This document shows positions 140-27,360 of a stretch of 64,000 bases of DNA, piece by piece (the stretch's first letter is position 1; each line of letters starts with the position of its first letter). Below the pieces are notes generated by a model that saw nothing but the letters and a program-made list of their open reading frames with translations, ran no database searches and had not been told where the DNA came from. Origin of the DNA: a virus; IMG/VR virus record IMGVR_UViG_3300015371_000004, positions 51,950 to 115,949 of that record; one strand, written 5' to 3'. A program made the position numbers and the translations under genes.

Positions 140-168
140 GGAACCTTTTTGCCGTATAATACGTCTAA
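140..168 (+). promoter_or_regulatory. ECF-sigma-type promoter GGAAC-N17-CGTCTAA
   Basis: GGAAC at 140-144 and CGTCTAA at 162-168, followed by GGAGG RBS and ATG 187; same architecture at four other sites. Confidence 0.75.
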
Positions 169-186
169 ATAGGTGGAGGGTTCCTG

Positions 187-546
187 ATGAAGATGCTGAC
201 GAAGGAACTGGCAAGCACGATTCCCCCGCTCTACACCAACGAGAACGTCACGGACCCCATGGTGGTCGCCAAGTACTTCACCCCATGGTCGAACTGGACG
301 TGGTACGTCACCGAGGGTGGCGCCCGCGTCGGCGAGAACGAGAACACGGTCCCGCTGAGCGAGGTCGCGAACCTCGACGCGGCCGACGTGCTCTTCTTCG
401 GCTACGTCGAGGGCCTTGAGAACGAGCTGGGCTACTTCAGCCTGAACGAGCTGAAGTCGGTGAGAGGCCCGATCGGCCTGAAGATCGAGCGCGACCTCTA
501 CTTCACCCCGGCGCCGCTTTCAACTTTCAAGAAGGAGCGCACATGA
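187..546 (+). CDS. DUF2958-like protein
   Basis: KYFTPWSNWTWYVTE...FFGYVEGLENELGYFSLNEL...IERDLYF pattern typical of DUF2958; RBS present. Confidence 0.75.
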   Translation: MKMLTKELASTIPPLYTNENVTDPMVVAKYFTPWSNWTWYVTEGGARVGENENTVPLSEVANLDAADVLFFGYVEGLENELGYFSLNELKSVRGPIGLKIERDLYFTPAPLSTFKKERT

Positions 547-677
547 CCGTCTACGTCGTCAGCAACGATCTCAACGCGGTCGCGGTGTTCTCGACGTTCG
601 AGGCCGCCTCGCGATACGCAGAGCCCCGCGGGCTGCAAATCACGATCTTCGAGGTCGACGAGAAGGAGCGCACATGA
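530..677 (+). repeat. 17-bp direct repeat AGAAGGAGCGCACATGA at 530-546 and 661-677
   Basis: identical copies at consecutive gene junctions. Confidence 0.9.
543..677 (+). CDS. small hypothetical protein (44 aa, MTVYVVSNDL...EKERT)
   Basis: AAGGAG RBS and ATGA overlaps at both ends; below ORF-track cutoff, translated by hand. Confidence 0.6.
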   Translation: MTVYVVSNDLNAVAVFSTFEAASRYAEPRGLQITIFEVDEKERT

Positions 678-883
678 GAATCTACACGTCAGCCAATGAC
701 CCGCTCGACTTCTGCAAGCGCCACACCCCGTCCGAAAAGACCGCGGAGAAGCGGTACGGCAACGTCGGGGATGGCCCGGATGGCCGCGGCAATTGCTTCG
801 CCTACGACGCCGAGCACCCCGACTATGATGGCGAGCACAAGTGCCGGTCGTGCGGGCGCGTGCTCGATGAGACTGACAGCTAG
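674..883 (+). CDS. small Cys/His-rich hypothetical protein
   Basis: RBS and ATGA coupling; CxxC near C-terminus. Confidence 0.6.
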   Translation: MRIYTSANDPLDFCKRHTPSEKTAEKRYGNVGDGPDGRGNCFAYDAEHPDYDGEHKCRSCGRVLDETDS

Positions 884-1047
884 TTGTCGGGCGGGAAGTC
901 CGGCGAGACCTTGACCCAGCCCTGCTGACCCAGCTTCTGATCGCGCCACTCGCGCAGCGTCACCGTCTTGGTCTCACCCGTCTCCGGGTTCTGGGCTTCG
1001 TACGACTGTTCTTTCTCGTCGGTCGGTTCCTTCGCAGGATCGGGCAT
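880..1047 (-). CDS. small hypothetical protein (55 aa, MPDPAKEPTDEK...)
   Basis: GGAGG RBS; ATG overlaps stop of zeta-toxin-like gene; hand translation. Confidence 0.55.
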   Translation of the reverse strand: MPDPAKEPTDEKEQSYEAQNPETGETKTVTLREWRDQKLGQQGWVKVSPDFPPDN

Positions 1048-2162
1048 CAGATTCCTCCGCTGGAGAGCATACTGCCCCGGCGCTGAAAACGCCGCTGGAA
1101 ATTTTCGGCGTAGCGCTGGGCCGCCACGACTTCTCGATACGACCCGGGCTCGTCCGCCCGCCAGTACACCTCGTCGAGCGCCGTGAACCCCCAGACGTGC
1201 GGCGGCGCGACCTCGGTCAGCTTCCCGTGCCGGTTGAGCACGGTCGCCTTGGCGCCGCGGTTGTCGACGACGACGTACGCGTCGAACAGGTGCTTGACCT
1301 TCTCGAACGTCCGCCGCGGGCGCGTCCCGTACTGCTTGTCGTAGTTGGATTTGATGTAGCCGATCGGCACGTACCGGCCCTTGCCGGTCTCGGCCCGCTG
1401 CTTCATGTAGCGCTGGAGCGACCGGGAGACGGACGTGTTGATGTCGACGTCGGTGAAGCGCGCCTCCACCCGGTAGCCTGCCTGCTTGAGCGACTTGATC
1501 CGGCCCATGGCGCCGCCGCCGTAGCGCGCGGTCTCATAGTCGACGCCGCCCAGATCCTTCATGGTCGAATCGAGCACCATGTTGTACTTGTTCGCCCGGC
1601 CGATCTCGATCAGCCGATCGACGATGTCGTTCGACTCGTCGTGGAGGACGCTGGCGTTGCTGCCCGTCCACTCGGGGAAAAGCGTCTTGATGTCGTCGGA
1701 ATTGATGGCCAGCTTGTTCGAGTAGTCGAGGCCCGCCGCGGCCGTCGTCTTCCCCGAGGCCGTCATCCCGGACATCATCACGGCCACCGGATGCTGCTGG
1801 GGTTCGAGGGGGTTGGTGCGCGGCTTCCAGCCTGCCTTGGTGACCTCGTGGGTCAGCACCTTCTGAATGATCTCGTCGTGGAGCTTCTGGCGCTCGGTCG
1901 TGTACTCACCGGTCTTCTCGTCGAAGTACTTCGACTTGGTCCCGCGAGGGCCCCACTCGGCGAGCATCTTCCGGTTGGCCAGCTCGGCCTGCGCGATCTC
2001 CTTGGCGTACTTGGTCTCTTCCGGCGTGTCGGCGCTCTTGCGGACCTGCGCTTCGAGGTCGGTCGCGTGGCCCGGCTCGCAGTCGCCGACGCCTTTGTCG
2101 GCAAACTTCCCATCACGTGGATCGTGACAGGGGTTGAATTCGCTGAGGGGAACGAGGTGCAT
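1047..2162 (-). CDS. zeta-toxin-family P-loop kinase with N-terminal peptide tag
   Basis: VMMSGMTASGKTT Walker A, INSDDIK, LHDES, MVLDST, GYRVEA, RYVP motifs. Confidence 0.8.
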   Translation of the reverse strand: MHLVPLSEFNPCHDPRDGKFADKGVGDCEPGHATDLEAQVRKSADTPEETKYAKEIAQAELANRKMLAEWGPRGTKSKYFDEKTGEYTTERQKLHDEIIQKVLTHEVTKAGWKPRTNPLEPQQHPVAVMMSGMTASGKTTAAAGLDYSNKLAINSDDIKTLFPEWTGSNASVLHDESNDIVDRLIEIGRANKYNMVLDSTMKDLGGVDYETARYGGGAMGRIKSLKQAGYRVEARFTDVDINTSVSRSLQRYMKQRAETGKGRYVPIGYIKSNYDKQYGTRPRRTFEKVKHLFDAYVVVDNRGAKATVLNRHGKLTEVAPPHVWGFTALDEVYWRADEPGSYREVVAAQRYAENFQRRFQRRGSMLSSGGI

Positions 2163-2166
2163 CTCG

Positions 2167-3231
2167 TCAGGGGTTCCAGCGGAACACGGCCGGATTTTTT
2201 CGGAACTCCGCTCGACGGCGCTGCTCTTTCCGCACCTTCGATGGCACCGCAGCCCACCGCTTGGCCTGCTCAGGCGTATCGAACTTCTTCAGCACACCAT
2301 CCGCGTCTCTGACCTCCCACGGCCGTCTGGGCACGGGTGCCCACTGCAGCATCAGGCCGCCATTGTCTAGGCTGGGCAATCCGTCAAACCGACCAAAGCG
2401 CTCACGCGGCAGGTCCGTCCGCTCCGGCTCCTCACGTGGCTGCTTCCGTCGGCGCCTGAAGTTCTCGCGCGGCAGGTCAGTACGCGCTCCGGGGTCTGGG
2501 TTCATCAACGCCCGGGACAAGCGAGCCTTCGGCTGGTCAGGCTTCACGATCTCCGCCCTCGCATAGTCGCTATCGTTGATCGACGCGAACCTGACGATGA
2601 ACCCGGGCCGGTCGTACTTGCTGGCCTTCCGAATCGCGACGTCGTGGCCCGTCTGATTGGCACGTGCACGCGCCGCGGATGCCGCGTCATGGTAGCTGTC
2701 GAAATGTTCCCTCCCGGGCTGGTCGCCCCCACCCGTCGAGCAGAACTGCCCACCATCCGGCGACCCACCCGGCTTGTGGCAATCGTTGGCCTCGGCTACC
2801 TTCGCGGCGCCCGGGGCGACGACGGACATGAACGGATCCTTCTTCACGACGTCGATCGCCTGCTGCCGGACCTGCGTGAGCGCCGCCAGCCGCACCGACT
2901 CCTCGTTCCGGCCATGCATGACCCGGAGCGCCTGCAGCCGGTCCAGCTCCCGGCGCTGGGTGGCCACGAGGTCGTCCACGTTCATGCGGCCACTCTTGAC
3001 CAGATCGACGATGTCCCGGACGGCCGAATCAATGGGGCCCGGCTCGCGCCGTTCGAGGAGGGCCGTCCTCTTCTGGGCCTCCCGGTCCATGGCACAGCGA
3101 GCCATCGCCAAGGCGGCCGAGCCCGAGGGCCGCTTCTCCCGGCAGGGGCGGTCATCGGCCTGCTTCTGCAGCCACGAGTTCGAGGCGGCCGTGTTCGAGC
3201 CTTTGAGTGCTGCGACGTGGATGCGGCTCAT
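2167..3231 (-). CDS. hypothetical protein with internal EANDCH...GGQF tag
   Basis: long ORF; start moved to ATG 3231, 7 nt downstream of GGGGTAATAC. Confidence 0.7.
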   Translation of the reverse strand: MSRIHVAALKGSNTAASNSWLQKQADDRPCREKRPSGSAALAMARCAMDREAQKRTALLERREPGPIDSAVRDIVDLVKSGRMNVDDLVATQRRELDRLQALRVMHGRNEESVRLAALTQVRQQAIDVVKKDPFMSVVAPGAAKVAEANDCHKPGGSPDGGQFCSTGGGDQPGREHFDSYHDAASAARARANQTGHDVAIRKASKYDRPGFIVRFASINDSDYARAEIVKPDQPKARLSRALMNPDPGARTDLPRENFRRRRKQPREEPERTDLPRERFGRFDGLPSLDNGGLMLQWAPVPRRPWEVRDADGVLKKFDTPEQAKRWAAVPSKVRKEQRRRAEFRKNPAVFRWNP

Positions 3232-3247
3232 GTTTGGTGTATTACCC

Positions 3248-3775
3248 CTAGTCCGAGGGCCACGGGGCACGCTCAAGTTCGTATTCTTCCCGGTCTCGCT
3301 CCAGACGCGACCGATGGATCCCCCGCCGATAGCTGGCTTTCGTCTTCCCGCTCCAGCGCCGATTCCGGTGTTCCGCGCGCGCCTGTTGGCGGTACTTGTC
3401 GAGCAGGTCCTTGCTCATCGGCTTCTCAGGCGTGCCGCGAGCCATCGCGTCCAGCGCTTCTGGAGACATCCCTTTGAGGGCCCTAATTCCATGCCGCTGA
3501 AGCGCGGCCAGCTGGGCCTTCAGGTCCGCGTAGATTTCCTGCTGATTTTGCTGCTTGCGCGCGGCCTGCCGCGCCATCTTCTCAGCCCTCCGCTGCTGAT
3601 GGGCAGCGCCGCGCTGCTGGCGCGCCGCGCGCGCCCGGTCCACCGCGCTCATCCCGGTCGACGCGCAGAACTGCCCGCCGCCCGGCCCGGACGGATTATG
3701 GCAGGGGTTGGCTTCGCTGAACGGACGTCCCTCGCTGGCGGGCCATAGTTCCCACATACTCATCCCTCTCGACAA
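3248..3775 (-). CDS. basic hypothetical protein with N-terminal EANPCH...GGQF tag
   Basis: ORF directly after terminase; Arg/Lys-rich. Confidence 0.7.
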   Translation of the reverse strand: MSRGMSMWELWPASEGRPFSEANPCHNPSGPGGGQFCASTGMSAVDRARAARQQRGAAHQQRRAEKMARQAARKQQNQQEIYADLKAQLAALQRHGIRALKGMSPEALDAMARGTPEKPMSKDLLDKYRQQARAEHRNRRWSGKTKASYRRGIHRSRLERDREEYELERAPWPSD

Positions 3776-3777
3776 GC

Positions 3778-4656
3778 TCAGTACGTCTCCCCCGGAGGTG
3801 GGGGGTCGAGCGGCCGATGCCGAATTCGCACCCCACGCCGCTTCACGTCGTCCACCCGCTGGCAGACGAAGTCAGTCGTGTCCCGGATGGTCGAGGTCAC
3901 GAGGAGCTTGTAGGCCCCCGGAAACCGCGTCGTCAGGGACTTCATCAAGCCCGTGTGGATCCCCGGCGCCAAGTCCGTCTCGCCCGCCAGCATGAAGGCG
4001 GCCTCGTCCATGACCCCCATCATCGTGTGATACCCAAAGACGGCCGTCGAGATACTCGACACCGAGAGCCCATAGATCCGCTTGGGGAAGCGGGCCTTGC
4101 GCGCCCCCGCCTTGAATCCCCGGCCGACAAACCATGGCGAGTGCTCGACGCGCGCCTTGAACTCGGTGAAGACGACGTCCGAGGCCTGATCCTTCGAGGA
4201 CGAAGCGTTCAAGACCGCAATGCGCGAATTCGGGCCCAGCATGTAGAAGAGGTCCGCCCGCCTGAGGCAGACGAGCTTGTAGATCGTCCGGGCCATGGCG
4301 CAGCCCGCGATGAAGCCCTTGCCAGAGCCCGAGCCCGCCAAGATGTCGACCTCCCGGACCTGCGGCAGGTCGAAGTAGATCATCAGGTCGACCTTGTCCT
4401 GATTGACCAGCCCTTTGAGGTTCAGGTACTTGGCGCCGAGCATGAACTCCTCGACGTCGACCGGGATCTCGTCGTAGATGAGTTCGTAGACGGCTTCGAG
4501 GCCGGAGAGGTCCCCGGCCTGCGCGCGCTTGAGCAGCCGGTAGATCGCGGTGCGATCCGAGGGCGTCAGCCGCCGGATCTCGTCGAAGGCGTCGAAGCGC
4601 TCCTCTTCAGTCGCGTCCGGCGGGAGAGTCGGGGTCGGATTGAGGGATCTTGGCAT
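3778..4656 (-). CDS. terminase large subunit, ATPase domain only
   Basis: IPVDVEEF..KYLNL N-terminus, AGSGSGKG Walker A, SKDQASDVVF, VMDEAAF Walker B, LLVTST motif III; no nuclease domain. Confidence 0.7.
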   Translation of the reverse strand: MPRSLNPTPTLPPDATEEERFDAFDEIRRLTPSDRTAIYRLLKRAQAGDLSGLEAVYELIYDEIPVDVEEFMLGAKYLNLKGLVNQDKVDLMIYFDLPQVREVDILAGSGSGKGFIAGCAMARTIYKLVCLRRADLFYMLGPNSRIAVLNASSSKDQASDVVFTEFKARVEHSPWFVGRGFKAGARKARFPKRIYGLSVSSISTAVFGYHTMMGVMDEAAFMLAGETDLAPGIHTGLMKSLTTRFPGAYKLLVTSTIRDTTDFVCQRVDDVKRRGVRIRHRPLDPPPPGETY

Positions 4657-5080
4657 CGGCCTGCGTGCGGGTGAACATCTCGATCACAGCCCGGGCACCC
4701 TGCACGGAGACCCCGGCTTCCTGCAGCTTCTCGGCCGCCGTCCGCGCGCGCTCGGCCTCAGCCTGATCCACGTCCTCGTCGAAGTCGACGTTCTTGGCCA
4801 TGCGCGAGAGGAGCGACATCTCGTTGTAGATTTTCGGGTCGACCTTGCCTTCGGCCCGCTCTCTGAGCACCATCACGGCCACCCGCCACCGCTGCACGTT
4901 GAAGGTCAGCCACGGGATCTTGGCAGGCGCGCCGGTCGTCAAGAGACCGAGCGCCTTGTCCATCTCGGCTTCGGCCTCCTGCAGCTTGCGCGACCCCTCC
5001 TCGTCAGAGGGTGGCGTAAGCGCCGACTCGTTCGCGTGCGGGAGATCCCGCTCGACGACGGTCGCAATGGACTCGCTCAT
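4607..5080 (-). CDS. hypothetical helical protein, possible terminase small subunit
   Basis: position immediately upstream of TerL ATPase; function inferred from synteny only. Confidence 0.45.
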   Translation of the reverse strand: MSESIATVVERDLPHANESALTPPSDEEGSRKLQEAEAEMDKALGLLTTGAPAKIPWLTFNVQRWRVAVMVLRERAEGKVDPKIYNEMSLLSRMAKNVDFDEDVDQAEAERARTAAEKLQEAGVSVQGARAVIEMFTRTQADAKIPQSDPDSPAGRD

Positions 5081-5639
5081 GTTTGGGTACCGGAACTTCG
5101 CACAAAATGGATCGGTGGGTCAACAGCCGCGCCAGCATCTCGGCGTAGCGCTTGGCGATCCGGCTCTCACTGGCGGCAAAGTACGTGGCGGCCTGCGCCA
5201 GATGCTGCCGGACCCGTGGCGACGGCAGCCCGACCCGCTTGGCCGTCTCGGCCTGCGAGGACGTCTGCGAGAACTCCGCCAGAATCTGGGGCATGTGCTC
5301 GGGCGCATCCGGCCAGACCCGGCCCAGATCTCGCCGGACCTCCCAGATCATGAGTCTCGGATGGTCAAGGAGAAACGCTAGCCGCTCGCAGGCGCGCTGC
5401 ATGCGATGGCTGACGGCTTGCTGGGTGAGGTGCAGGGCCTCCCCAATTTGGTCCTGATTTTTTCCGGCGAAGAAATGCAGCTCGATGACGTCACGCTCGA
5501 CTGGCGGGATGGTCTTGAGCAGGCGGCGGACTTGGAGGAGGCGCTCCGGGTTGTGCTCGTCGGCAGGCCGCACAAACTCGATCCATGACCGCAGGTGGAA
5601 GGTCTCGGGATCGATGTCGGTGAGGCTCAGCTCGCGCAT
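5004..5639 (-). CDS. sigma-70 region-4-like HTH protein with a second HTH
   Basis: IPPVERDVIELHFFAGKNQDQIGEALHLTQQAVSHRMQRACERL, plus SQAETAKRVGLPSPRVRQHL. Confidence 0.7.
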   Translation of the reverse strand: MRELSLTDIDPETFHLRSWIEFVRPADEHNPERLLQVRRLLKTIPPVERDVIELHFFAGKNQDQIGEALHLTQQAVSHRMQRACERLAFLLDHPRLMIWEVRRDLGRVWPDAPEHMPQILAEFSQTSSQAETAKRVGLPSPRVRQHLAQAATYFAASESRIAKRYAEMLARLLTHRSILCEVPVPKHERVHCDRRRAGSPARERVGAYATL

Positions 5640-5643
5640 CGGC

Positions 5644-5838
5644 TCACTGAATCGGGAGATGCTGGAGGAGCCACCACCCGTTTTCGGGTAGCTCGGGATG
5701 CTGCTTGAGGTGACGCTCAAGAAGATAGAAGCCAAGGTTCTTGGCCGCGCAGGGCGTTTCCCCTATCGTCTCGAACATCAGCTGCTGTCCCGTCCCCTCC
5801 GTGAAGATCGTTTGGTACTTCCGGACCGGTCGACTCAC
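5644..5838 (-). CDS. hypothetical protein
   Basis: fills gap between NusG-like and sigma-4-like genes with GTGA overlap. Confidence 0.5.
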   Translation of the reverse strand: MSRPVRKYQTIFTEGTGQQLMFETIGETPCAAKNLGFYLLERHLKQHPELPENGWWLLQHLPIQ

Positions 5839-6329
5839 ACCCGCTCCAGCTCGTACAACGCCGCTCGTACCGAGATGTGCCTAGAGTGTAACCGAATTTG
5901 GACATCGGCACGATTTTGCCGTTTGTCGACCCGCTGCACCTTCCCGGTCATGCCCGTCCATGCCCCCAAGAGGAGGCGCACTTTCGAGCCCCGCCGGAGG
6001 AGCCGCGGACGCACCGACCGCCGGACGTCCTTCATCTGGGTCGGCGACAGCCGTTCGAAGGCCTGCCCGTCCGAGGTTCGTACAAGTTTGTCCACAAAAC
6101 GCGACCGCTCGACGCGCTGCACGTGCGCGTCCGGGCTCACCTCAAGGAAGGCGTAGCCCCCGTAGGCGTGGGCCCATGCGATGGTACCGGTGCAAGTTTC
6201 CGCAGGAAAGAAGACGCGAACGCCCGGCAGGTACCGGGCGAAGTCTCTCTGGATGTCAGCCGTGGGGACGTCGGACACCGTGTCCGCCAGCATTGCAATC
6301 ACCCACTCGCTGGCCGCACGCTTTGCCAC
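5835..6329 (-). CDS. nusG: NusG-family transcription factor (NGN + KOW)
   Basis: VFFP...YGGYAFLE NGN-like region; GSKVRLLLGAWTGMTGKVQRVD KOW motif. Confidence 0.75.
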   Translation of the reverse strand: MAKRAASEWVIAMLADTVSDVPTADIQRDFARYLPGVRVFFPAETCTGTIAWAHAYGGYAFLEVSPDAHVQRVERSRFVDKLVRTSDGQAFERLSPTQMKDVRRSVRPRLLRRGSKVRLLLGAWTGMTGKVQRVDKRQNRADVQIRLHSRHISVRAALYELERV

Positions 6330-6356
6330 TCTGAGGCGAGGACTTTACCACAACCG

Positions 6357-8369: not shown

Positions 8370-8392
8370 GGCGTCTCAGTGATACCCCAACC

Positions 8393-15143: not shown

Positions 15144-15820
15144 AATCGACAGCTCTCATACGCCTCGGCCGCATTCGATCGTAGATGTTCTACCACGCGG
15201 GCAAGGAGCGCCGGGATCGACTGCCGGGCACTCGGCTTGTGCAAGAGGTACGACGGGTGCACCAGCGGGATCACCTGCAGGACGCGCGACGGAGCGTCAT
15301 CGAGACGCACGCGCATCGGGGCAAAGCTCATCTTCCCCATGCTCGGCGAATGCACCCCCAAGACAAACCGTGACGCCTCCTCGCCCAAGGTCAGGAGCAC
15401 CTCCACGTGCTCGAACGTCTTCAGCTCCTCGCGCAGCCACTTCGTCCCGCACACCTGCACTTCCTTTTTGGTGGGCTTCCGATCGTCGTGCGTGTGGCAC
15501 TTCACGAGATTCATCACCAGAATTTTCTGCCGGTCGATCGCCATAGCCTGCAACCAGTCGTTCAAGACATCGCCCGCCCGGCCAACGAAGGGGCTTCCGT
15601 ACTGGTCTTCCTCGCGCCCCGGGTTCCGCCCCAGCACGCCGATCCGCGCCAAGAGGGGGCCATCGCCGGGCACGACCCGCGTGGCCTCCAGCCGCGCCGA
15701 GCAGGCCGTGCAGGCCAGCAGATCCGCGTACCACGGCACGTCGCTGTACCACTGGACACCTGACGGCCGCGGCTCAGGTTCCCCGCCGAGGATCGCGTCG
15801 AGGTCGACCGCGTCACTCAC
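15140..15820 (-). CDS. uracil-DNA glycosylase family 4
   Basis: CTAC, VPGDG, GRNPGREEDQYGSPFVGRAG, NLVKC, HPSYLL. Confidence 0.9.
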   Translation of the reverse strand: MSDAVDLDAILGGEPEPRPSGVQWYSDVPWYADLLACTACSARLEATRVVPGDGPLLARIGVLGRNPGREEDQYGSPFVGRAGDVLNDWLQAMAIDRQKILVMNLVKCHTHDDRKPTKKEVQVCGTKWLREELKTFEHVEVLLTLGEEASRFVLGVHSPSMGKMSFAPMRVRLDDAPSRVLQVIPLVHPSYLLHKPSARQSIPALLARVVEHLRSNAAEAYESCRL

Positions 15821-17082
15821 GAGAGCAGCTGCTGGGCTTCCGGCCACAGCTCCACCTGACTCTCGGGCAGCGGCTGCACCGAGCCCCACGTCGACCCGGC
15901 GCTGACCGACCAGTGCATGGCCGCCCGCTCGCGCCAGCGCGCCACTGTCGGCGTCGTCACCAGCGTGGCGTGCAGCTCCCGTAGAAACCCCCGGACATCA
16001 GCGTCGACCGGCAGCTCGGCCGCGACGGCGTGCCGGGTCAGGATCATCCGGGCCCGCCACTGCTGGTCGAGCGCGCGCGCCAGCCACGCCAAGAGTTCGC
16101 CGGTCTCCTCGTAGACCCGCTGCTCCTGCGCTGGATACGCCGACAGCACGCCTTCATAGACCGAGGCCGACGGCAACCCCTGCGCCACTGCATACTCGTC
16201 CGGCGTGCTCCACGTGATCGGGTCCTCGTGAGCCGCCATGGCCGTCCGGACAAACGGCGTCGACAGGGAAAACTGGGCCCAAAATTTTCCGGACTCGGAT
16301 GGCACCGCGACTCGAAGTTCGGTCGGCAGCGTATTGAGCGCCGGGCCAGCCGCCGCAAAGGTCCAGTGCCGGTGGAACCGCCACACCGGGTTCAGGTAGA
16401 CGTAGATGCCATCCCGTTCCGACGAGGCCACGCTGGCTGCCAATCCCCCCGCGCGCTGCGCGCAGAGGTCAGCCCGGCGCCACTCCTCGTACGTCCTGAG
16501 CCAGACGGGATCTTGGCTCACGGTCTTCCACAGCTTCGACCGGCGCACCGCGCGCACCGCCACCGTCCCGAGCGCAGGCTTCAGGGCAGGCGTGAGCCGA
16601 TTGACGATCGCGACCTGCTCATCGACGACAGCCTTGTACTTGGCCTCATCGAACACGACACCGTGCCGATTGAGCGCCACCAGTACGGGCGCCACCACCG
16701 CATTTTCCACCGGGCGCGCCAAGGGCTGATCAACGAACATGGCTCGCTCGACCGCCGACTCCAGCGACGTCACATGCCAGTCCGCATCGACTCTCGCGAA
16801 CACCTGCTCGACGCTCAGGTCCTGCAGGTGGTCCCACGCGATCGACTGACGAATCCCCGGCTGCAACGTCCGCAGGACGTCGACCACGTCCCATGTCGAC
16901 ACGAGACCCCGATGCTCTGTGAGCACCGTCGCGCAGGCCATCCAGTCAGCCGACGTCCATTCCCGTGTGTCGCCGCCGTAGGCCTCGCCATCCCGGACTG
17001 CGACCAGATAGCCCGCCCCAGCAGCCAGACCCAGTCGGCCACCGATGCCCGTCAGCGCTTTCAGATCGTGGAAGGTCTTCAC
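15817..17082 (-). CDS. degenerate (apparently inactive) family-A DNA polymerase paralog
   Basis: PVLVALNRHGVVFD, GPALNTLP..LR, motif A position FSLSTPFVR, motif C position MILTRHAV, C-terminal SAGSTWG. Confidence 0.55.
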   Translation of the reverse strand: MKTFHDLKALTGIGGRLGLAAGAGYLVAVRDGEAYGGDTREWTSADWMACATVLTEHRGLVSTWDVVDVLRTLQPGIRQSIAWDHLQDLSVEQVFARVDADWHVTSLESAVERAMFVDQPLARPVENAVVAPVLVALNRHGVVFDEAKYKAVVDEQVAIVNRLTPALKPALGTVAVRAVRRSKLWKTVSQDPVWLRTYEEWRRADLCAQRAGGLAASVASSERDGIYVYLNPVWRFHRHWTFAAAGPALNTLPTELRVAVPSESGKFWAQFSLSTPFVRTAMAAHEDPITWSTPDEYAVAQGLPSASVYEGVLSAYPAQEQRVYEETGELLAWLARALDQQWRARMILTRHAVAAELPVDADVRGFLRELHATLVTTPTVARWRERAAMHWSVSAGSTWGSVQPLPESQVELWPEAQQLLS

Positions 17083-17579
17083 GCGAGCACCGGCTGAAGC
17101 GCGCCGAGCAGCGCCGCATGGTCCTTCTTCGTGATCCGGCCCGTCCGATCCACCCGCTCAATCACCGGGAGTAGCTCCGGCTTCGCCAGCAGGAACTCCC
17201 GCAGCTCACGGATGTAAAGGTCGTCGGCCTGCGTGGCGGCCTTCGCCGTCCGCGCGTCGAGCCGGTACTTGTTCTGCCACGGCCCGCCGCTGTCCACGCG
17301 GCTGTAGGCCCGATCGAGCTGGAGAGGATGCAACCGGCGGGAAGCAGCGCGATGTTTGTTCCGCGCGACACTTTGACACACGAGGTAGAGGTAGGACGTG
17401 AAGGCCGAGCGGTCCTTGGTGTAGCGGTCGAGCAGCCCGTACTTGTGCACGCGCAGGTAGACGTCCTGCACCATGTCATCAAGGTCCTCCTGCCCGATCG
17501 ACGTCACCGTCTTGAGGAAAGCCCGTATCTTGCCGTCGTAGCGCTCTACCAGTGCCTCTAGGGTCCGCGGTGCGTCCAT
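17079..17579 (-). CDS. ECF-like sigma factor, region 2 only
   Basis: LVERYDGKIRAF...DLDDMVQDVYLRV...SAFTSYLYLVCQSVARNKHR; no recognisable region-4 HTH. Confidence 0.75.
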   Translation of the reverse strand: MDAPRTLEALVERYDGKIRAFLKTVTSIGQEDLDDMVQDVYLRVHKYGLLDRYTKDRSAFTSYLYLVCQSVARNKHRAASRRLHPLQLDRAYSRVDSGGPWQNKYRLDARTAKAATQADDLYIRELREFLLAKPELLPVIERVDRTGRITKKDHAALLGALQPVLA

Positions 17580-17598
17580 AAGCGTCGCTCCTAACTGT

Positions 17599-17627
17599 TT
17601 AGACGTTGGGTTGGCCTAAATTGTTCC
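17599..17627 (-). promoter_or_regulatory. ECF-type promoter upstream of sigma-2 gene
   Basis: reverse complement GGAAC-N17-CGTCTAA, then AGGAG RBS. Confidence 0.75.
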
Positions 17628-18614: not shown

Positions 18615-18623
18615 CGGCTCCTC

Positions 18624-19037: not shown

Positions 19038-19056
19038 CTCAGCCGGGTAATACCCC

Positions 19057-20042: not shown

Positions 20043-20219
20043 AGCGCGATCTCGCCGGATGGTCCGGTCTCCGCCGGTTCGGCGAGGATCTTCGCCGCCC
20101 GCTGCCGCAGGAGGTCCGCTTGGGCCCGGCGGCGCGCGGTGCTCTCCCGCAACCGCTCGTCCGCCTTCTGCGTGCTCTGGCGCTCGCGGAGGCGCGCGCC
20201 CTTGTCCTTCAGGAGCTGA

Positions 20220-20648: not shown

Positions 20649-20651
20649 CTA

Positions 20652-20927: not shown

Positions 20928-21310
20928 GCGGAGGTTATACCCCAGCCCTAAGGCCACGTGTAGGGAGTCTTCCAGACCTCCCTGATCATCGTCGCGACCC
21001 CACCTTCGACCGTGCCCGTCCGCCAGCCTTGCTCGACCAGCGACGCCCACTCAATCGAGTGGTAAATTGTCTTTCGATACTCGTAGCGTCGAAACATCAG
21101 GCTTCCTCCCATCCGCCAAGGACCACCCACTTGCCGGTCGCCAGCTCTCGGCCGTAGTGGAGACCTCGGTGATTCTTGTACTGGAAGATTCGGAACCGTC
21201 GGCCGTCCTTCTGAGCAACACCGTAGACGTAGCGCCCGGACTGGCCGTCGGTACTGCGGTGAAGCGCGTCCCTGATTCCGTAAAAGTTCGTCACCAACGC
21301 AACCCTCCCT

Positions 21311-22027
21311 TCACTCAACGGGATCCCCGGCCACGACCTCGACGTTCGATCCGGCCGTGAAGACCCTCGTGCCGTTCGCCAGCTCCAACCCCACCCTCTC
21401 GTAGTTCTCGTCGTCAGCGAAGCCATAAGACCGGGCCAGCGCCGAGTAGGCGGAACGCTTGAACTTGTCTTTGCCAGCCCAGAAGACCCGGCCGACCGTG
21501 CCCTTCGGGACCTTCCGGCCCTTGACCACCTTGACCGTCCGGCCGACCTTGGGGAGCTTGGCCTCGGCCGCCGCGCGCGCTGCGCGGGCCCTAGCTCGCT
21601 TGCGCTCCGACCATGCCTCGTAGGCCGCGAGGACCTCGGGGGTCGCATCCACGCTGGCGCCGTTCGGGTAGGACCAGCCGCGGGTTGAGGCGTAGGTGAC
21701 GCGCTCGGTCTTGCCCTCCTCTGGATTCCAGACCACCGCGTAGAAGTCGCTGTCGTCGTAGCCGTTGTACTCGCCCGTCGAGAGCACCAGCCCCTCGTGG
21801 GTGGTCTTCATGTAGAGCGGGCCATGCACGAAGCACCGACCGCCGTCCCGGAGGTAGTCGGTCAAGCAGCCCTCGGAGAGGGCTCCAGATTTGTCGTAGC
21901 CTTTGGCCCGGTTGGGGCACTTGCTGTCGTGAGAGACCGCGCCCGTCTCGTGGCCGGGGTAATCATTGACCGTCTCGACGTTCGGCAGGCCAGCCTCGTC
22001 GGGTCCGGTCATCATACGGATCGCCAT
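21311..22027 (-). CDS. hypothetical phage protein (YDDSDFYAVVWN; KVVKGRKVPKG)
   Basis: first gene after ECF promoter; GGAGG RBS. Confidence 0.7.
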   Translation of the reverse strand: MAIRMMTGPDEAGLPNVETVNDYPGHETGAVSHDSKCPNRAKGYDKSGALSEGCLTDYLRDGGRCFVHGPLYMKTTHEGLVLSTGEYNGYDDSDFYAVVWNPEEGKTERVTYASTRGWSYPNGASVDATPEVLAAYEAWSERKRARARAARAAAEAKLPKVGRTVKVVKGRKVPKGTVGRVFWAGKDKFKRSAYSALARSYGFADDENYERVGLELANGTRVFTAGSNVEVVAGDPVE

Positions 22028-22046
22028 CTTTCCTCCTTCCACTTAT

Positions 22047-22091
22047 TTAGACGTACGGAAGGCAGGAAAAGTTCAATTACAGGACTGTAAT
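22047..22091 (-). promoter_or_regulatory. ECF-type promoter with palindromic operator
   Basis: TGAAC-N17-CGTCTAA; ATTACAG-GA-CTGTAAT at 22076-22091. Confidence 0.75.
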
Positions 22092-22092
22092 C

Positions 22093-22278
22093 CTAGATGG
22101 GGTGGTTGGGGGTATCGGGGAGTCGACCCAGCCGCCTGAGCCGGGCCAGCTCATCTTCCAGTTCGGCGTAGTAGGCGGCCTCCTCGGCCGTCCTGACAAG
22201 CCTCTGCCGACGGGCTTGGTCCAGCGTCATGCCCCGCTGGATCGCGGCCCACATCGACTCCATGCGGTCGGTGTCCAT
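22093..22278 (-). CDS. small helical protein downstream of zeta-like toxin
   Basis: ATG 5 nt after GGGGTAGTAC. Confidence 0.6.
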   Translation of the reverse strand: MDTDRMESMWAAIQRGMTLDQARRQRLVRTAEEAAYYAELEDELARLRRLGRLPDTPNHPI

Positions 22279-22286
22279 ACGTGGTA

Positions 22287-23378
22287 CTACCCCGTCTCCA
22301 GCGTCTTCTTCCGGGCCTTGAGCCGGAAGCTCTTCCAGAGCCGCTTGTTGTGGATGACGAGCGCCGGGCCGCGCGCCGAGGCCACCAGCCGCGGCTCCCC
22401 CAGCTTGTTCGTGTCCCAGAGCCGGAACTCCGTGAAGAGCCCCCGGCGGACCACCCGCGGGACCACCTGCGAGACACCCCGATGAGCCTCCCGGATGTAG
22501 GGGTGCGGCGTGTAGCGCCCCTGCCGTGGGCCCGGCTTGAGCGCCCCCTGATCGGACAACCGGAGCGCCAGTTCCACCGAATTCGTCGCGTAGTCGGCGA
22601 TCACCCGGTAGCCCTTCTTCCGGAACCCTTCGAGCTTGTCCGTCAGCTTGTCGATGCTGCTGTCGCCCACGCCATCGAGCACGATGTCCTGCCCGTTGCT
22701 GAGCGCCTTCATGATCACCTTGAACGTGATGTCGCTGCTCTCCTCATGGCTGAGCGTCGAGGCCCGGTGGTCCCCGCCCAAGACCATCGCCTGATACTCC
22801 GGGATCCGCGCTTTGACCGCGTCCGGGTTGGCGTAGACCGCGAGGCCCGTCGGCGGGAACTTCACCAGCCCGGTATTGACCATGGTCGACTTGCCACTGG
22901 CCGGGCCGCCGCCCGTCATGTAGACCGTCTGGTTGGTGCTCTTCGGGATGCCGCGTGTCAGCTCGTCCACAATCCGGTCGTGGAGCTTCAGTCGCTCAGC
23001 CGTATAGACTCCGTCCTTCGAGTATATCTGCTTGGTGTCCGGCGGCAGCGCCTCGAAGTCCTCGCAGATCCCGGTGCCCTTCGGCGCGAACCGGCCGCCG
23101 ATGCCCGAGCCTGCGGGCTCATGGCAGCGGTTGAATTCCTGAAGACGCCGGGTCCAGTCCCGCCTCCGGCTGAGCAGGAAGTCAGCCCAGCTGACGTTTC
23201 CCGTCCGGCGTTTCCACTGCTGGAAATGGCTCTGCAGGACCTTGAGGACGCCAACCGCCGTGCCGCTGTCCGCCGGTCTTCCCCGATGGGAAGCGAAGCG
23301 GCCAAGCCGGTCGTGGTAGTGGTTGTACTCCCGGGTCCGCGGCAGCTCGGGCTCGGAATTCGAGGCGGGAACAATCAC
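22287..23378 (-). CDS. second zeta-toxin-family kinase with two peptide tags
   Basis: MTGGGPASGKST, NPDAVK, HEESS, VLDGVG, GYRV, LWDTN. Confidence 0.8.
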   Translation of the reverse strand: MIVPASNSEPELPRTREYNHYHDRLGRFASHRGRPADSGTAVGVLKVLQSHFQQWKRRTGNVSWADFLLSRRRDWTRRLQEFNRCHEPAGSGIGGRFAPKGTGICEDFEALPPDTKQIYSKDGVYTAERLKLHDRIVDELTRGIPKSTNQTVYMTGGGPASGKSTMVNTGLVKFPPTGLAVYANPDAVKARIPEYQAMVLGGDHRASTLSHEESSDITFKVIMKALSNGQDIVLDGVGDSSIDKLTDKLEGFRKKGYRVIADYATNSVELALRLSDQGALKPGPRQGRYTPHPYIREAHRGVSQVVPRVVRRGLFTEFRLWDTNKLGEPRLVASARGPALVIHNKRLWKSFRLKARKKTLETG

Positions 23379-23655
23379 ACTAAAGGCGGGCGCACAAGCT
23401 CAGGGGGCGCTTTGGCCAGCATCCGCTCGGCTTCCTTGTGCTTCGACCATCCGACGTGCCCGCAGTCCTTGCAGCGGTACTCCACAAACTTTGACCCGAT
23501 CCGCGATCCTCCGCGCCCGTCCCTTCGCGGGCGCCAGCGCCCCGTGGCTTCGAGGTTCATGCCTCTCGTCGTTCCCATAAAGGCGCGCCGCCACGTCCGG
23601 CACTTCGCGCAGACGAAGTAGTACGGCTGGCCCGTTCCACCATTCGTCCCGGGCA

Positions 23656-23889
23656 TCAGTCCGCCTTGAAGTCGAAGTAGACCCGCGGGCTGTGTTTGAA
23701 GACCAGCGTCCCCCGGACTCCATCGGCCCGCCGCCTCACCACCACGTAAGGCGCCAGAAAACCGATGACCTCGAAGTCCCGGGTCAGCTCGTCGGTTGTC
23801 CACGTCTGGCCCGTCGGCACGAATGCCGGGTCGTTGATTTCAGGGACCAACGCGCGGCGCGCGCCTTCCGTCGGATCATCGGTCTGCAT
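23656..23889 (-). CDS. hypothetical protein
   Basis: GGAGG RBS; coupled ORF. Confidence 0.65.
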   Translation of the reverse strand: MQTDDPTEGARRALVPEINDPAFVPTGQTWTTDELTRDFEVIGFLAPYVVVRRRADGVRGTLVFKHSPRVYFDFKAD

Positions 23890-24142
23890 TGGCTCCTCCC
23901 ATCGCTACCCGTTTCTGAGCCCACACCAAGTGCTTCCGCAAGGACGCGTGCAGGTCCTTGCGATACGTCTTGGCCGAATAGAGCCCCGCGCGCACGGCCG
24001 CCTCCCCAAGCGCTTCGAGCCGGGGCAGCAGCTCGTGCGGCACCGTCGCGGGCCACGCTGGGATCCCCGTCCACAGCGCCGTGTTCTCGGCCAGCCATGA
24101 GACCTTGTCTTCGATCGTCGTCCGGCTAGGCCCTCGCGCCAC
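23876..24142 (-). CDS. hypothetical protein
   Basis: GAGG RBS; coupled ORF. Confidence 0.55.
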   Translation of the reverse strand: MARGPSRTTIEDKVSWLAENTALWTGIPAWPATVPHELLPRLEALGEAAVRAGLYSAKTYRKDLHASLRKHLVWAQKRVAMGGANADR

Positions 24143-24461
24143 GCGCCGCCTCCTCTGCCAGAACTCGATCGCGTGCTTCCAACCCGGACATCCGGATCAG
24201 CTTCGCGATGATGATCTCCCATGCCCGGATGGCCGCGAACTTCGTCGGGTAGATCGGCGCGCCCTTGAGCAGCGGGTTGTCGACCGTCCAGCCCCGGCCC
24301 AGCCTGCGAACCGGGTAGCTGGCCGACCCGAACCGGCTGTTGTGCGTGAGCACCATCCGCTCGTCCTCCGTCAGGCGCGCGCCGTTTTCGTAGGCCTCTT
24401 CAGCGAGGGCGTCGCCAGTCTTGGTGATCTCGTCGTGGTAGTCCCGGCCTTCGTTTTTCAT
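24126..24461 (-). CDS. hypothetical protein
   Basis: coupled ORF. Confidence 0.55.
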   Translation of the reverse strand: MKNEGRDYHDEITKTGDALAEEAYENGARLTEDERMVLTHNSRFGSASYPVRRLGRGWTVDNPLLKGAPIYPTKFAAIRAWEIIIAKLIRMSGLEARDRVLAEEAARGARA

Positions 24462-25367
24462 GTCAGATCCTTGCCGCAATAGCGGGTGAGATACAGGCGT
24501 TGAAGTACGTGCGTGGGCGCGTTAGTGTCGAACTTGACGTGGGCGACCCGCAGGCGGCGCTTCAGCCAGAGCCGTCGCGGAATCTGAGCAGCCTCCGGCA
24601 GTCGAGGCCCGCGCCCATAGAACATCTGGTCAAGCGCTCCCGCTCGACTGACGGTTCTCATCGGATCCTCCGACCCTTCGTGGAATGCGGCCCGGCAAAC
24701 CGGGCAAAGATGACGTCGTAATTGGCGTCCCGGACGACCACGGTGGCTGACCGACCCCGGCGCCATGTGCGGGCGGCGGCGTTGATGGCCAGCTGACGCG
24801 CGGAGGCCGGAGGATCTTCCCGGTCGCCAAACTCGGCGGCGCCCAAGAACTCACCCCGGCTGCCGGTGCGTTCAACGAGAAAGGTTTCTGACGTCATGAC
24901 GCCCTCACAGGGATCACCGCGGTCGCCGCGCCTGTCCGCCATGCGCGCCCGCTCGCGCGGCTGTCGATCACGAGCCGGTACCACCCGGCCTTACTCGTTT
25001 TGACGTTGAGGACGTTGGACTTCGGGAACCGAAAGCGCTCACCAATCACCAGCGCCGAGAAGGGGACCGCTTCGGGCCCACCAAGCACCTTCGCCCACGC
25101 CATCCGATTGCCCTCTCTCAAGTGCCGATCGAGATTCGTCATGAGTCCCTCCCGAGAAGGTTCAGCGCCTCGCGCGCCGCGGCTCGTGCCGCCACCGTCA
25201 GCGTCATGCCGGACCGACGCAGGGTCCCCGGGGACACCCGGTACGGCCGCGCGCGGTACGCCGTCAGCAGCCGCTTGAAGCTCAGGGCCGCGTTGCGCAC
25301 CTCAGTGGCTTTCCACCCCATCTTCAGGCTCGTTGGAAGGGACATCCTCAAACCTCCTACCACTTAT

Positions 25368-25412
25368 TTAGACGTAAGGTAGGGTCAAAAGGTTCCATTA
25401 CAGAACTGTAAT
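25368..25412 (-). promoter_or_regulatory. ECF-type promoter with palindromic operator
   Basis: GGAAC-N17-CGTCTAA; ATTACAG-AA-CTGTAAT at 25397-25412. Confidence 0.75.
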
Positions 25413-25601
25413 CTACTCCCCCTTCGGGCGCCGGAGCAGCTCGTCGACCTCCCGCTTGCTGACGTGCACCCGCCCGGGCGCCACCCCCTCGATCTGGACC
25501 TCGACCGCGCCCGCCTTCCGGGACACGACCTCGGCCGGGTACCACGACTCGGCAAACCGGACCTCGACCTTGTCGCCCCTCTTGAGTTTCAACCTCGACA
25601 T
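25413..25601 (-). CDS. small SH3/Tudor-like protein
   Basis: KRGDKVEVRFAESWYPAEVV pattern. Confidence 0.55.
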   Translation of the reverse strand: MSRLKLKRGDKVEVRFAESWYPAEVVSRKAGAVEVQIEGVAPGRVHVSKREVDELLRRPKGE

Positions 25602-25818
25602 CGTCAGATCCTCGGCCAGCAGTGATGACTGATGGATTCGGCCAAGAGGGCGGCCACCTGCTCGGCCGTGTGTGACCGCGACCCCGGCATGTTGATCCGG
25701 ATCTTCCGGCCCGCCATCACGAGCGAGGCGTCGTAGCCTTTCTGCCGGTTCCCGTCGATCACGATCTGGACGTTGTAGACCTCAATCGGGTCCATCGGCT
25801 TTTCCACGGCGCTCCTCC

Positions 25819-26223
25819 TCACGCGGCCACCTCCGAATTCGTGAAGGTGAGGACGTTCGCCTTCAGCTCCTCGTAGATCGGCCGCTCGCGCACGGTCGCC
25901 ACGATCTTGGCCAGCGTCTTCGCGTTGAAGGCCTTGGCCTCGTCCAAGAACGCCTTCTTACCGCTCTGCCCCATCGTGAAGCGCTCCGAGAAGAAGTGCT
26001 CGCCCCGGCTCAGCTCGACCTTCGTCACGTGCAGGTAATACCCGCGCCGGTCGGTCTGGTAGGTGAAGTAGTTGATCCCGCCCTTGCTGTAGGCCACTGA
26101 GACCTTCAGGTAGGGCTCGAAGACGTCGAGGGCGGACGGCTCGGACGGCGGACCCGCGAGCGCGATCAGCTCGATCGGGACCTCCTGCTTGCGGACTTTC
26201 AGATCGGACACGGTAAACGGCAT
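25819..26223 (-). CDS. hypothetical protein
   Basis: GAGGAGGAG RBS. Confidence 0.65.
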   Translation of the reverse strand: MPFTVSDLKVRKQEVPIELIALAGPPSEPSALDVFEPYLKVSVAYSKGGINYFTYQTDRRGYYLHVTKVELSRGEHFFSERFTMGQSGKKAFLDEAKAFNAKTLAKIVATVRERPIYEELKANVLTFTNSEVAA

Positions 26224-27315
26224 GGTCTCCTCCTCTTAGGCTTGCAGTGTAGGCACGTCACCTTCTCGGCCTTGTCCGTGTGGACCACGTCGAAGCTCTT
26301 CCGACCACACGCCGTCCGATACGGGTGACGCCGCGACAGTCGATGAACGCGGGGCTCTCTCACACGGTCTCCTCTCCGATTGCCTTGGCCAGCTCAGCCA
26401 AGGCCAGCTCGGCATACGTGTCCGCCTCAGTCGCCTCCCGGCGGGCCTTATCGGCTCGATCCTGCTCGTCCGCCGCCAGCCGTCGAAGCGCCTGCCACGC
26501 CGTCGTCGACCAGAGCTTTATCTGGTAGGCGTCCCAGCGCGTCCTATCGTCGAGGGTCACGAGATGCTTGCCGATGCCCTTGACCGTCCGCGCCGAGACT
26601 TCCACGGCCGAGGGATCGCCGTGAAATCGGGGCACTCGATGCGCCCGGTAGAGGGTCTGACCTTTCACGACGTCCAAGGCTGGAGCCATCACGCGGCCTC
26701 CTTGAATTCCACGGTTGCCCGGCTCAAGACCTTCGGGCCCGACCAGCTCACGAGGGTCGTCGCGGTCGGCGCCGTCCGATACCAGCGCCGGAGCAGCCGG
26801 AGCGCCGCGGGCCAGCCCTTCAGCGTCGTGCGCCGCCAGCGACCTCGAATCACTTTGACCGGAGTCATGACGCCCTCCATCGGTCGAGCGCCCGATCGCG
26901 CGCAGGCGACGGCGGGAGATCGGCGAACGGGGCCACACTCGACGCCACCGCCCGGCGGGCCGTGGCCAGCGCCAAGGCCGCCCGCGTCTTGTCCTCAAAC
27001 GTGTCGGTCGAGACCCGGAGACTCGCGTCCGGGACCCGCGTCAGAATCGACTTGGCCGTCAAGAAGACTTCCTCGATCGAGCCGAGAAAGTAGGCCAGCC
27101 GGGAGCCGTCTGGATTCGTCATGTAGAGCCGGTATCGCGTCATTGCATTCCTCCTCATGTCAGCCTCCACGCCACCCGCGCCAGCGTCAGCGACGGCCGG
27201 AACAGCGGGTTTCTCAGCACCAGCCCCGTCAAATAGGCCAGCCGAAAGACCGCCACCGCCAGCTCGTCCGCCCAAAACAGAAGCGCCGCCATTGCCCCAA
27301 CCTCCCTACACCTAT

Positions 27316-27360
27316 TTAGACGTGTGGAAGGGGCAAAAGGTTCCAATTACAGAAGTGTAA
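27316..27360 (-). promoter_or_regulatory. ECF-type promoter with imperfect operator
   Basis: GGAAC-N17-CGTCTAA; ATTACAG-AA-GTGTAA at 27346-27360. Confidence 0.75.

Follow-up and report, generated by a model that had tools for sequence, protein, structure and literature searches.

The window analyzed here, a stretch of 64,000 nucleotides, comprises bases 51950-115949 of a 115,949-bp IMG/VR record of an uncultured phage. A search of this window for GAAC-N17-CGTCTAAA returned five matches, at 141-169 on the plus strand and at 17598-17626, 22046-22074, 25367-25395, and 27315-27343 on the minus strand, versus none in 100 dinucleotide shuffles, and to within 1 nt these are the sites of the original prediction. 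On its own, CGTCTAAA was found in the window at the same five places and at no others (0.4 expected). Immediately 5' of GAAC, four copies have a G and the fifth has a T (22075). As had been anticipated, each copy precedes a ribosome binding site (SD) and a start codon (at 187, 17579, 22027, 25345, and 27292, respectively).

The full record contains ten such sites rather than the five members originally proposed, the additional ones lying outside the window at genome positions 14506-, 14593+, 15116+, 51863-, and 51927+. All ten CGTCTAA heptamers of the genome belong to a site, with GGAAC (TGAAC once) located 16 to 17 nt upstream. In a genome-wide scan, a position weight matrix made from the sites scored them at 34.6 to 56.2 bits, and nothing else in the genome exceeded 10 bits. 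The -35 box is GGAAC in nine sites and TGAAC in one, with a T-run next to it, and the -10 box ACGTCTAA is present in all ten. The 17-nt spacing, thought to be invariant, is so in the five window copies but not genome-wide, with N17 in nine sites and N16 at 51927+ (17 or 16 nt from GGAACTT to TCTAA). Nine of the ten copies are near-identical over about 45 nt, from about -37 through the SD, and thus beyond both boxes, and an A stands immediately 5' of CGTC in every copy. All sites are intergenic and nine are co-oriented with the downstream gene. In the same proportion (9/10), an SD and a start codon follow 17 to 21 nt downstream of CGTCTAAAT, while no ORF lies downstream of the tenth site, 51927+. 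Judged by these sequence features, all ten can be taken as genuine promoters belonging to a single class, with -35 GGAACyTTTT and -10 ACGTCTAAAT, and they represent a real regulon because one copy stands before the phage's own half-sigma gene. Transcription is predicted to start at a conserved G about 6 nt past TCTAA, which would give a leader of 12 to 20 nt containing GGAGG.

The plus-strand promoter of the window (140..169, GGAAC-N17-CGTCTAAA) heads a DUF2958 gene (187-546) and two small genes. On the minus strand, the TGAAC variant at 22046..22075 heads a gene encoding 238 amino acids (21311-22027), and the promoters at 25367..25396 and 27315..27344 head cassettes of small genes, the first of which are located at 25139-25345 and 27155-27292, respectively. 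The minus-strand promoter at 17598..17627 precedes the phage sigma gene (17079..17579), as the original prediction had it. Of all copies, it scores lowest (34.6 bits) and diverges most, retaining the conserved core only (GGGAAC/N17/CGTCTAAA). Outside the window, the first gene behind the copy at genome position 51863- encodes a Zn-ribbon protein, and the terminase-nuclease, portal, and major-head genes come next; the head of this packaging/structural block carries an ECF-type promoter only. Because of this copy, the suggestion that the promoters drive cassettes for early host takeover is not supported.

A feature overlooked previously is a 16-bp palindrome, ATTACA-N4-TGTAAT, which adjoins the -35 of seven of the ten promoters and is absent at 140..169 and at the sigma gene's promoter. 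In the window, ATTACAGGACTGTAAT (22076..22091) and ATTACAGAACTGTAAT (25397..25412) abut the -35 of the promoters at 22046..22075 and 25367..25396, and ATTACAGAAGTGTAAG (27346..27361), with one mismatch, lies 1 nt from the -35 of that at 27315..27344. Divergent promoter pairs have one or two of these operators in common. A dimeric phage DNA-binding protein may occupy ATTACA-N4-TGTAAT, centered near -44 to -48, and would gate seven of the ten promoters, leaving that of the sigma gene ungated. Since the candidate operator is situated just upstream of the -35 and not over it, both activation and repression are conceivable. The arrangement resembles operator-gated phage promoters of the lambda type in its short perfect inverted repeat, fixed position, and association with many copies of one promoter class; however, lambda-type operators lie over the -35. 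Conserved inverted repeats are also found near the early promoters of phiC31.

The sigma gene (17079..17579, minus strand) encodes the 166-amino-acid protein P0001, in which residues 1-82 form a sigma region 2 of the ECF type and are followed by a three-helix tail. It matches Pfam Sigma70_r2 at 2e-7, its best Foldseek match is region 2 of E. coli sigmaE (rmsd 1.9 Å, 30% identity), and sigmaE is the sole match in a phmmer search against the PDB. The L3 loop, DRSAFTSYLY, resembles D-SAFYTWLY of sigmaE and the loops of cellular ECF sigmas behind CGTCTAAAT promoters, and the core-binding D-x-x-Q motif of true sigmas is retained. The original assignment of region 2 without region 4 is borne out. 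P0001 covers only positions 11-127 of 191 in a profile from cellular ECF sigmas and model positions 3-77 of 165 in TIGR02937, with a score below the cut-off; about 29 amino acids comprising the helix-turn-helix (HTH) are deleted in the alignment; and the tail, folded by itself, had no sigma4/HTH neighbor (best E-value, 1.7). P0001 is thus a sigmaE-like region-2 protein without the region-4.2 HTH, the loss of which is common to its family of four members among 15 billion proteins. The stop codon of the sigma gene overlaps the GTG start (GTGA) of an ORF of up to 421 amino acids (15817..17082, minus strand), which has no Pfam or PHROG match and occupies the usual position of the anti-sigma gene in ECF operons.

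The only other sigma-like ORF in the record, which contains no further region-2 sigma gene, encodes P0045/P0049 (211 amino acids; 5004..5639, minus strand), consisting of sigma region 4 and a second HTH. P0045 is a candidate partner for reading the -35. It matches Pfam Sigma70_r4 at 1e-15 and covers positions 117-180 of the ECF profile and 102-161 of TIGR02937 (47.8 bits, above the cut-off), the halves complementary to those covered by P0001. Its closest solved sigma4 domains are those of SigF and SigB. Of the sigmaE residues reading GGAAC, namely, R176, S172, F175, and R171 (PMC1540707), the equivalent of R176 alone is kept in the P0045 family, with S, H/L, and Q/R/K at positions 171, 172, and 175. 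All nine cellular ECF sigmas examined behind the motif have K-S-R-x-x-R in the recognition helix (171 = K, 172 = S). Alternatively, P0045 could be the protein that binds the palindrome. The P0001 and P0045 genes are located on the same strand, 12 kb apart, with class II promoters (see below) between them; they are neither adjacent nor cotranscribed, and the P0045 gene has no promoter of the ECF class. Homologs of both halves, P0003 for P0001 (49% identity) and P0053 for P0045 (53% identity), are each encoded on a Logan contig with a length of 116,863 bp, and the other relatives are on fragments. Searches of IMG/VR, INPHARED, and JGI contigs yielded no relatives.

A second promoter class, class II, likewise escaped notice in the original prediction. 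It consists of a -10-only element, GGGGTANNAC, whose GGGTA -10 is SigB/F-like. The copy GGGGTATTAC (19047..19056, minus strand) lies upstream of the sigma gene on the same strand, and no terminator-like sites were found between 19047 and 17579; the first sigma transcripts probably arise by read-through from this element. For the region-4 gene, the closest recognizable promoter upstream is another copy, GGGGTATCAC (8379..8388, minus strand). In the replication block (SNF2, DnaB, and PolA), GGGGTANNAC promoters are the only ones. Sigma70-type consensus promoters are not enriched.

The ECF-type architecture recognized originally agrees closely with characterized cellular promoters. E. coli sigmaE uses -35 GGAACTTTT and -10 (T/C)GGTCAAAA with a spacer of 15-19 (PMC1312014), and S. 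coelicolor sigmaE uses GGAAC-N17-CGTCT (PMC6767563). The consensus GGAACyTTTT-N12-CGTCTAAAT of this phage equals the E. coli sigmaE logo and the S. coelicolor sigmaE spacing. Bacterial genomes contain the 18-base pattern at least 120 times, versus roughly 20 expected by our estimate, and the cellular matches listed are intergenic, have A/T-rich upstream DNA, and often precede SigW/RpoE/SigM/SigV-like ECF genes; at least 12 of them stand directly before a full ECF sigma gene. RpoE/SigE/SigW-type (group 4) promoters, such as those of the E. coli and S. coelicolor sigmaE regulons, share with the phage sites the -35 GGAACTTTT, the -10 (C)GTC(T/A)AA(A), a spacing within 15-19 nt, a copy upstream of a sigma gene, and A/T-rich DNA upstream of the -35. 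The phage sites differ in their near-identity, in the 16-bp palindrome that replaces the loose A/T-rich UP region, and in the adjacent phage sigma lacking region 4. A further difference is the A before CGTC, invariant in the phage and present in 15-20% of same-type cellular promoters among the matches listed, which may indicate that the phage has its own specificity.

The original prediction left a choice between a host ECF sigma and an autoregulated phage sigma, and we lean toward the latter, together with a separately encoded region-4 protein. Our best, though tentative, explanation is that transcription starts from the -10-only class and that a two-part sigma of the phage then reads the ECF-type promoters in a positive-feedback loop. 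Host core RNA polymerase would carry this phage-made sigma, in which P0001 would melt and read CGTCTAA and P0045 would contribute region 4 for the -35. The first P0001 and P0045 molecules may derive from the same-strand GGGGTANNAC copies upstream, at 19047 and 8379 of the window, and the sigma gene's own ECF-type promoter would close the feedback loop. Genes switched on by the ECF class would then comprise the packaging/structural block, several small-gene cassettes, and the recombination/repair operon that follows the sigma gene.

This explanation is favored by a motif that is far beyond chance, strictly intergenic, gene-oriented, and all-or-none, and by its presence directly upstream of the record's only region-2 sigma gene, autoregulation being the standard route for inferring ECF targets. 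The sigmaE-like region 2 of P0001, the complementary profile halves, and the homologs, each on a 116,863-bp Logan contig, point in the same direction, as do the invariant A before CGTC and the division of labor between a replication block with GGGGTANNAC only and a packaging/structural head with the ECF type only. Against it stand the SigF/SigB-type recognition helix of P0045, in which most sigmaE contacts to GGAAC are missing, the 12 kb between the two genes, and the lack of an ECF-class promoter at the P0045 gene.

Precedents for split sigmas with positive feedback exist. In B. subtilis SigO-RsoA, Tn916 Sig7-Sig8, T4 gp55/gp33, and SPO1 gp33/gp34, region 2 and region 4 functions likewise reside on separate proteins, and Tn916 Psig7 exemplifies a feedback promoter before the sigma gene, the arrangement proposed here. 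These systems serve late or element-wide expression. Their genes are adjacent, whereas those of P0001 and P0045, whose partnership is presumptive, are not, and the phage halves are mismatched in type, the region-2 half being clearly ECF-type and the region-4 half SigF/SigB-like. Moreover, T4 and SPO1 late promoters lack the ECF-type -35 present here. Single-chain ECF-like (group-4-like) phage sigmas that redirect host core RNA polymerase include phiEco32 gp36 and Rm378p144 (199 amino acids) of Rhodothermus phage RM378. The RM378 sigma is the only INPHARED match to P0001 (34% identity over residues 8-82); in contrast to the P0001 family, both are full-length sigmas that have region 4 as well as region 2.

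The main rival explanation, which we consider rather unlikely but serious, attributes the reading of all ten promoters to a host ECF sigma of the RpoE/SigE/SigW class, one of the two alternatives of the original prediction. Since the phage sites match the cellular consensus over 18 positions, such a sigma could suffice: the units would be launched by envelope stress upon infection or by basal ECF activity, and P0001 would be a regulon product, which might serve the -10-only GGGGTANNAC class as T4 gp55 serves late promoters. Besides the agreement with the E. coli logo and S. coelicolor spacing and the abundance of the pattern in bacterial genomes, often before ECF genes, this would accord with a P0001 devoid of region 4, a P0045 helix devoid of the ECF residues for GGAAC, the lack of enrichment of sigma70-type promoters, and the notion that a region-2-only sigma is the natural partner of a -10-only promoter. 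However, a packaging/structural block behind one copy, with replication on the other class, would be an odd order if the ECF class were the earliest, and region 2 of P0001 is ECF/sigmaE-like, suiting CGTC rather than the SigB/F-like GGGTA of class II. Because anti-sigma factors normally keep ECF sigmas in check, reliance on such a sigma alone would be risky. Moreover, the A before CGTC is invariant in the phage but not in cells, and no phage is known to us that relies on an ECF sigma of its host. The stricter version, in which the phage has no sigma for these promoters, a host envelope-stress ECF sigma reads them, and the region-2-only protein frees the host sigma by titrating its anti-sigma or, like T4 gp55, serves the GGGGTANNAC class, appears unlikely to us. 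With a host sigma as the reader, the host stress response would control not only the accessory cassettes and the sigma-like gene but even the head of the structural block, to our knowledge the first phage program built on a host ECF sigma.

A mixed start, purely inferential and in our estimation improbable, would reconcile the perfect cellular consensus with a phage region-2 protein behind such a promoter. The host ECF sigma would make the first transcripts, including that of P0001, before either the phage sigma took over at the same promoters or P0001 acted as a region-2 decoy freeing the host sigma from its anti-sigma, with positive feedback in both cases. Anti-sigma factors bind ECF regions 2 and 4, and PDB 1or7 and 8z6g are among the structural neighbors of P0001; on the other hand, the D-x-x-Q core-binding motif would be superfluous in a mere decoy. 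It is very improbable that the repeats are not promoters at all but copies of a mobile or recombination cassette (for instance, PeSL-like shuffling modules) or binding sites of another protein. Nine copies are indeed alike well past the boxes, as duplicated cassettes would be, yet what the most diverged copy preserves is precisely the -35 and -10 boxes and the 17 nt between them, the geometry is that of validated ECF promoters, and the intergenic, gene-oriented placement is that of promoters. Nor was a consistent upstream hairpin found (fold z-scores, -1.75 to +1.0).

Phage-encoded sigmas with private promoters are a classic theme, to which this phage adds a textbook cellular ECF consensus combined with a phage sigma without region 4 and a region-4 protein encoded elsewhere, as well as a dedicated operator at most promoter copies and a second, -10-only class in the same genome. 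Together, the pair of half-sigmas, the single operator, and the two classes of promoters make up a compact, testable transcription program, which poses the question of whether the phage brings its own ECF-like sigma or exploits a host stress sigma. Provided that the two-part sigma is functional, its small components could, like the ten near-identical promoter/leader modules, be used as orthogonal expression parts.

We found five copies of GAAC-N17-CGTCTAAA in the window, against an expectation of 0, each within 1 nt of its predicted position. The set is larger than the five members of the original prediction, since the whole record carries ten such sites (class I), which account for every CGTCTAA heptamer in the genome. 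The motif is not as common within genes: all ten sites are intergenic. Nine of them point at a gene, with a GGAGG-type Shine-Dalgarno (SD) sequence and start codon 17 to 21 nt after CGTCTAAAT. A position weight matrix built from the sites and scanned across the genome scored them at 34.6 to 56.2 bits and everything else at 10 bits or less, revealing no weaker class I copies. We consider it highly improbable that these ten sites are not promoters. Their consensus is tGGAACyTTTT-N10-tACGTCTAAATArGTGg-aGGAGG. The outlier is the copy in front of the gene for P0001, the phage sigma region 2 protein, which retains just GGGAAC, the 17-nt spacing, and CGTCTAAA; their retention in such a divergent copy marks these elements as the constrained parts of the promoter. 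Judging from the geometry of sigmaE promoters, transcription should start at the conserved G of GTGG, with a leader of 12 to 20 nt.

One class I promoter, 51927+, has an N16 spacer and lies in a segment at genome positions 51907-52090 (L011:11907-12090), the 3' part of which corresponds to window 1-140. It is followed by an SD sequence, a two-codon ORF (ATG AGT TGA), and a GC-rich stretch of approximately 130 nt, with an 8-bp hairpin at its end, right before the next promoter; no ORF of at least 20 aa is present behind it. A small RNA at this place was considered and rejected (fold z-score of 0.03, no Rfam match). PeSL-like terminator-promoter cassettes were likewise rejected, as an upstream hairpin was not consistent across the sites.

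The class I promoters are associated with a putative operator. The genome contains six copies of a 16-bp palindrome, ATTACA-N4-TGTAAT (0.01 expected; none in shuffles of the window), each situated 0 to 4 nt upstream of a class I -35 box. Seven of the ten promoters have it, with one copy between the members of the divergent pair 51863-/51927+ and two copies, 23 bp apart, between those of the pair 14506-/14593+; it is absent from 15116+, 52111+ (window 140), and the promoter of the sigma gene. The palindrome is centered at about -44 to -48, a location that fits an activator or a repressor alike. None of the genes next to the palindromes encodes a clear helix-turn-helix (HTH) protein. A search for an operator-binding protein among the first genes that follow these promoters turned up Zn-ribbon or unknown proteins, with no clear HTH repressor among them. 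The products of two of these first genes, L009:14621-14926 (+) and L011:11366-11839 (-), are small and contain CxxC...CxxC zinc-ribbon motifs.

A second group of promoter-like elements, class II, is defined by GGGGTANNAC, GGGGTA(T/A)(T/A)AC, and lacks a conserved -35. It is represented by 23 copies in the genome and 18 in the window (0.9 expected), the latter located between 3239 and 56352 [e.g., 34885-34894 (-) and 34924-34933 (+)]. In agreement with gene direction, minus-strand copies all lie to the left of position 34,900 and plus-strand copies all to the right. Class II elements are often only 4 to 12 nt from a start codon, which would render the transcripts leaderless or nearly so. Their GGGTA core is similar to the -10 box of promoters of the SigB/SigF type (PMC8346170). 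At the strand switch (window 34850-34935), a divergent class II pair surrounds the inverted repeat GTGACAGGTTGGGTCAC, and the whole has the appearance of an early control region that possesses an operator of its own.

By sequence, class I has the boxes and spacing of ECF promoters. Those of E. coli sigmaE comprise the -35 GGAACTTTT and the -10 (T/C)GGTCAAAA, separated by a 15- to 19-nt spacer, together with a discriminator of 5/6 nt, a start at a purine, and A/T-rich DNA upstream (PMC1312014), and S. coelicolor sigmaE targets carry GGAAC-N17-CGTCT (PMC6767563). When prokaryote species, each represented by one genome, were scanned for the pattern GGAACNTTTT-N12-CGTCTAAAT, at least 120 matches were obtained, compared to about 20 expected by chance according to our own estimate. 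Among the matches listed, Clostridia predominate, with some Anaerolineae, Aminicenantes, Planctomycetota, Acidimicrobiales, and Armatimonadetes; these matches are intergenic with A/T-rich upstream DNA, and the first ORF behind 12 of 104 encodes a full ECF sigma of the SigW/RpoE/SigM/SigV type. The phage sites are thus the same as a widespread, autoregulated type of cellular ECF promoter. In two Clostridia, the same motif precedes genes for proteins of 80 to 83 aa [L075:7159-7398 (+) and L123:2138-2386 (-)], which contain nothing but a sigma region 4-like HTH and have no adjoining region 2 gene.

The record contains just two sigma-like ORFs, P0001 (window 17079-17579) and P0045 (window 5004-5639). 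The region 2 fold of P0001 is confidently predicted, its nearest solved relative by both structure and sequence is region 2 of E. coli sigmaE, and its L3 loop is sigmaE-like. A profile built exclusively from cellular ECFs matches P0001 at positions 11-127 of 191, and alignment with these proteins revealed that the region 4.2 HTH of about 29 aa is missing. The three-helix tail of P0001 was rejected as a minimal region 4, since folded alone it had no sigma4 or HTH neighbor. The P0001 family has four members among approximately 15 billion proteins. P0045 aligns to positions 117-180 of the cellular ECF profile and is matched by TIGR02937 at positions 102-161 with a score above the cutoff. A P0001 homolog and a P0045 homolog were each found on a contig of 116,863 bp. 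However, a simple split ECF factor is disfavored because the helix of P0045 is SigF/SigB-like and, of the four GGAAC-reading residues of sigmaE, retains the R176 equivalent alone. Downstream of the P0001 gene, an ORF of up to 421 aa [window 15817-17082 (-)] has a GTG start overlapping the sigma stop codon (GTGA); neither Pfam nor PHROG gave a match for this ORF, and it occupies the place of the anti-sigma gene in cellular ECF operons.

The record is linear (115,949 bp, 65% G+C, estimated completeness of 76%), and the window comprises its bases 51950-115949. It is a tailed phage, with a portal, a major head protein, the nuclease part of a terminase, and a gene whose size (1,897 aa) is that of a tape measure. 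Genes were mapped with a crude GC3-based caller. A replication block encodes an SNF2 helicase, DnaB, and a family A polymerase, and a recombination/repair block encodes UDG, RecA of the phage type, an SbcCD-like protein, and PD-(D/E)XK; the window contains no tRNAs. Of the large terminase [genome 50242-51117, L011:10242-11117 (-)], the C-terminal nuclease part alone is recognizable, upstream of the portal gene. The ATPase half was not found adjoining it, and the terminase may be split, interrupted, or partly encoded elsewhere. Also encoded are a 371-aa protein with a zeta-toxin-like kinase domain [window 1047-2162 (-); Pfam Zeta_toxin, 1e-21] and, within the replication-side block, a 539-aa B12-binding radical SAM protein [window 53414-55033 (+)]. 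No close relative was detected in INPHARED, including by megablast with 13 kb of phage DNA, or in IMG/VR, scanned with P0001, its family alignment, the portal, and the promoter pattern; the sole IMG/VR DNA match (L012) was dismissed as an AT-rich chance match. tblastn with the portal and P0001 returned only remote matches, in Microcystis phage Mae-JY22 and Rhodothermus phage RM378, and JGI metagenomes a single distant region 2 match (L013) without the promoter motif.

A single region 2 domain is unable to recognize CGTCTAAAT as well as GGGGTATAAC, and the record yielded no phage RNA polymerase; at least one of the two classes must therefore be read by a host sigma. We tentatively propose that class II would be host-read and early, and that class I would be read by P0001 with a region 4 partner. 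This arrangement is suggested by the fit of an ECF region 2 to the CGTC -10, by the sigma gene lying behind a class I promoter, and by the fact that extended -10-only promoters do not need region 4. It is further suggested by the distribution of the elements: the replication block has class II only, and class I stands at the head of the structural block as its only promoter, in the sense that no further copy of either motif class heads it. Reading of class I by a two-part phage sigma is a serious possibility, which we hold with some reservation. A host ECF sigma acting alone at class I, proposed in the original prediction beside autoregulation of the phage sigma gene, would agree with the exact match of the phage sites to the cellular consensus and with the non-ECF-like helix of P0045; we consider it the less likely of the two. 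A mixed or decoy scheme is more doubtful still.

Phage sigmas with private promoters are already known, as are split sigmas and phage promoters gated by operators. What is new in this phage is the combination of private promoters, separate sigma halves, and putative operators.
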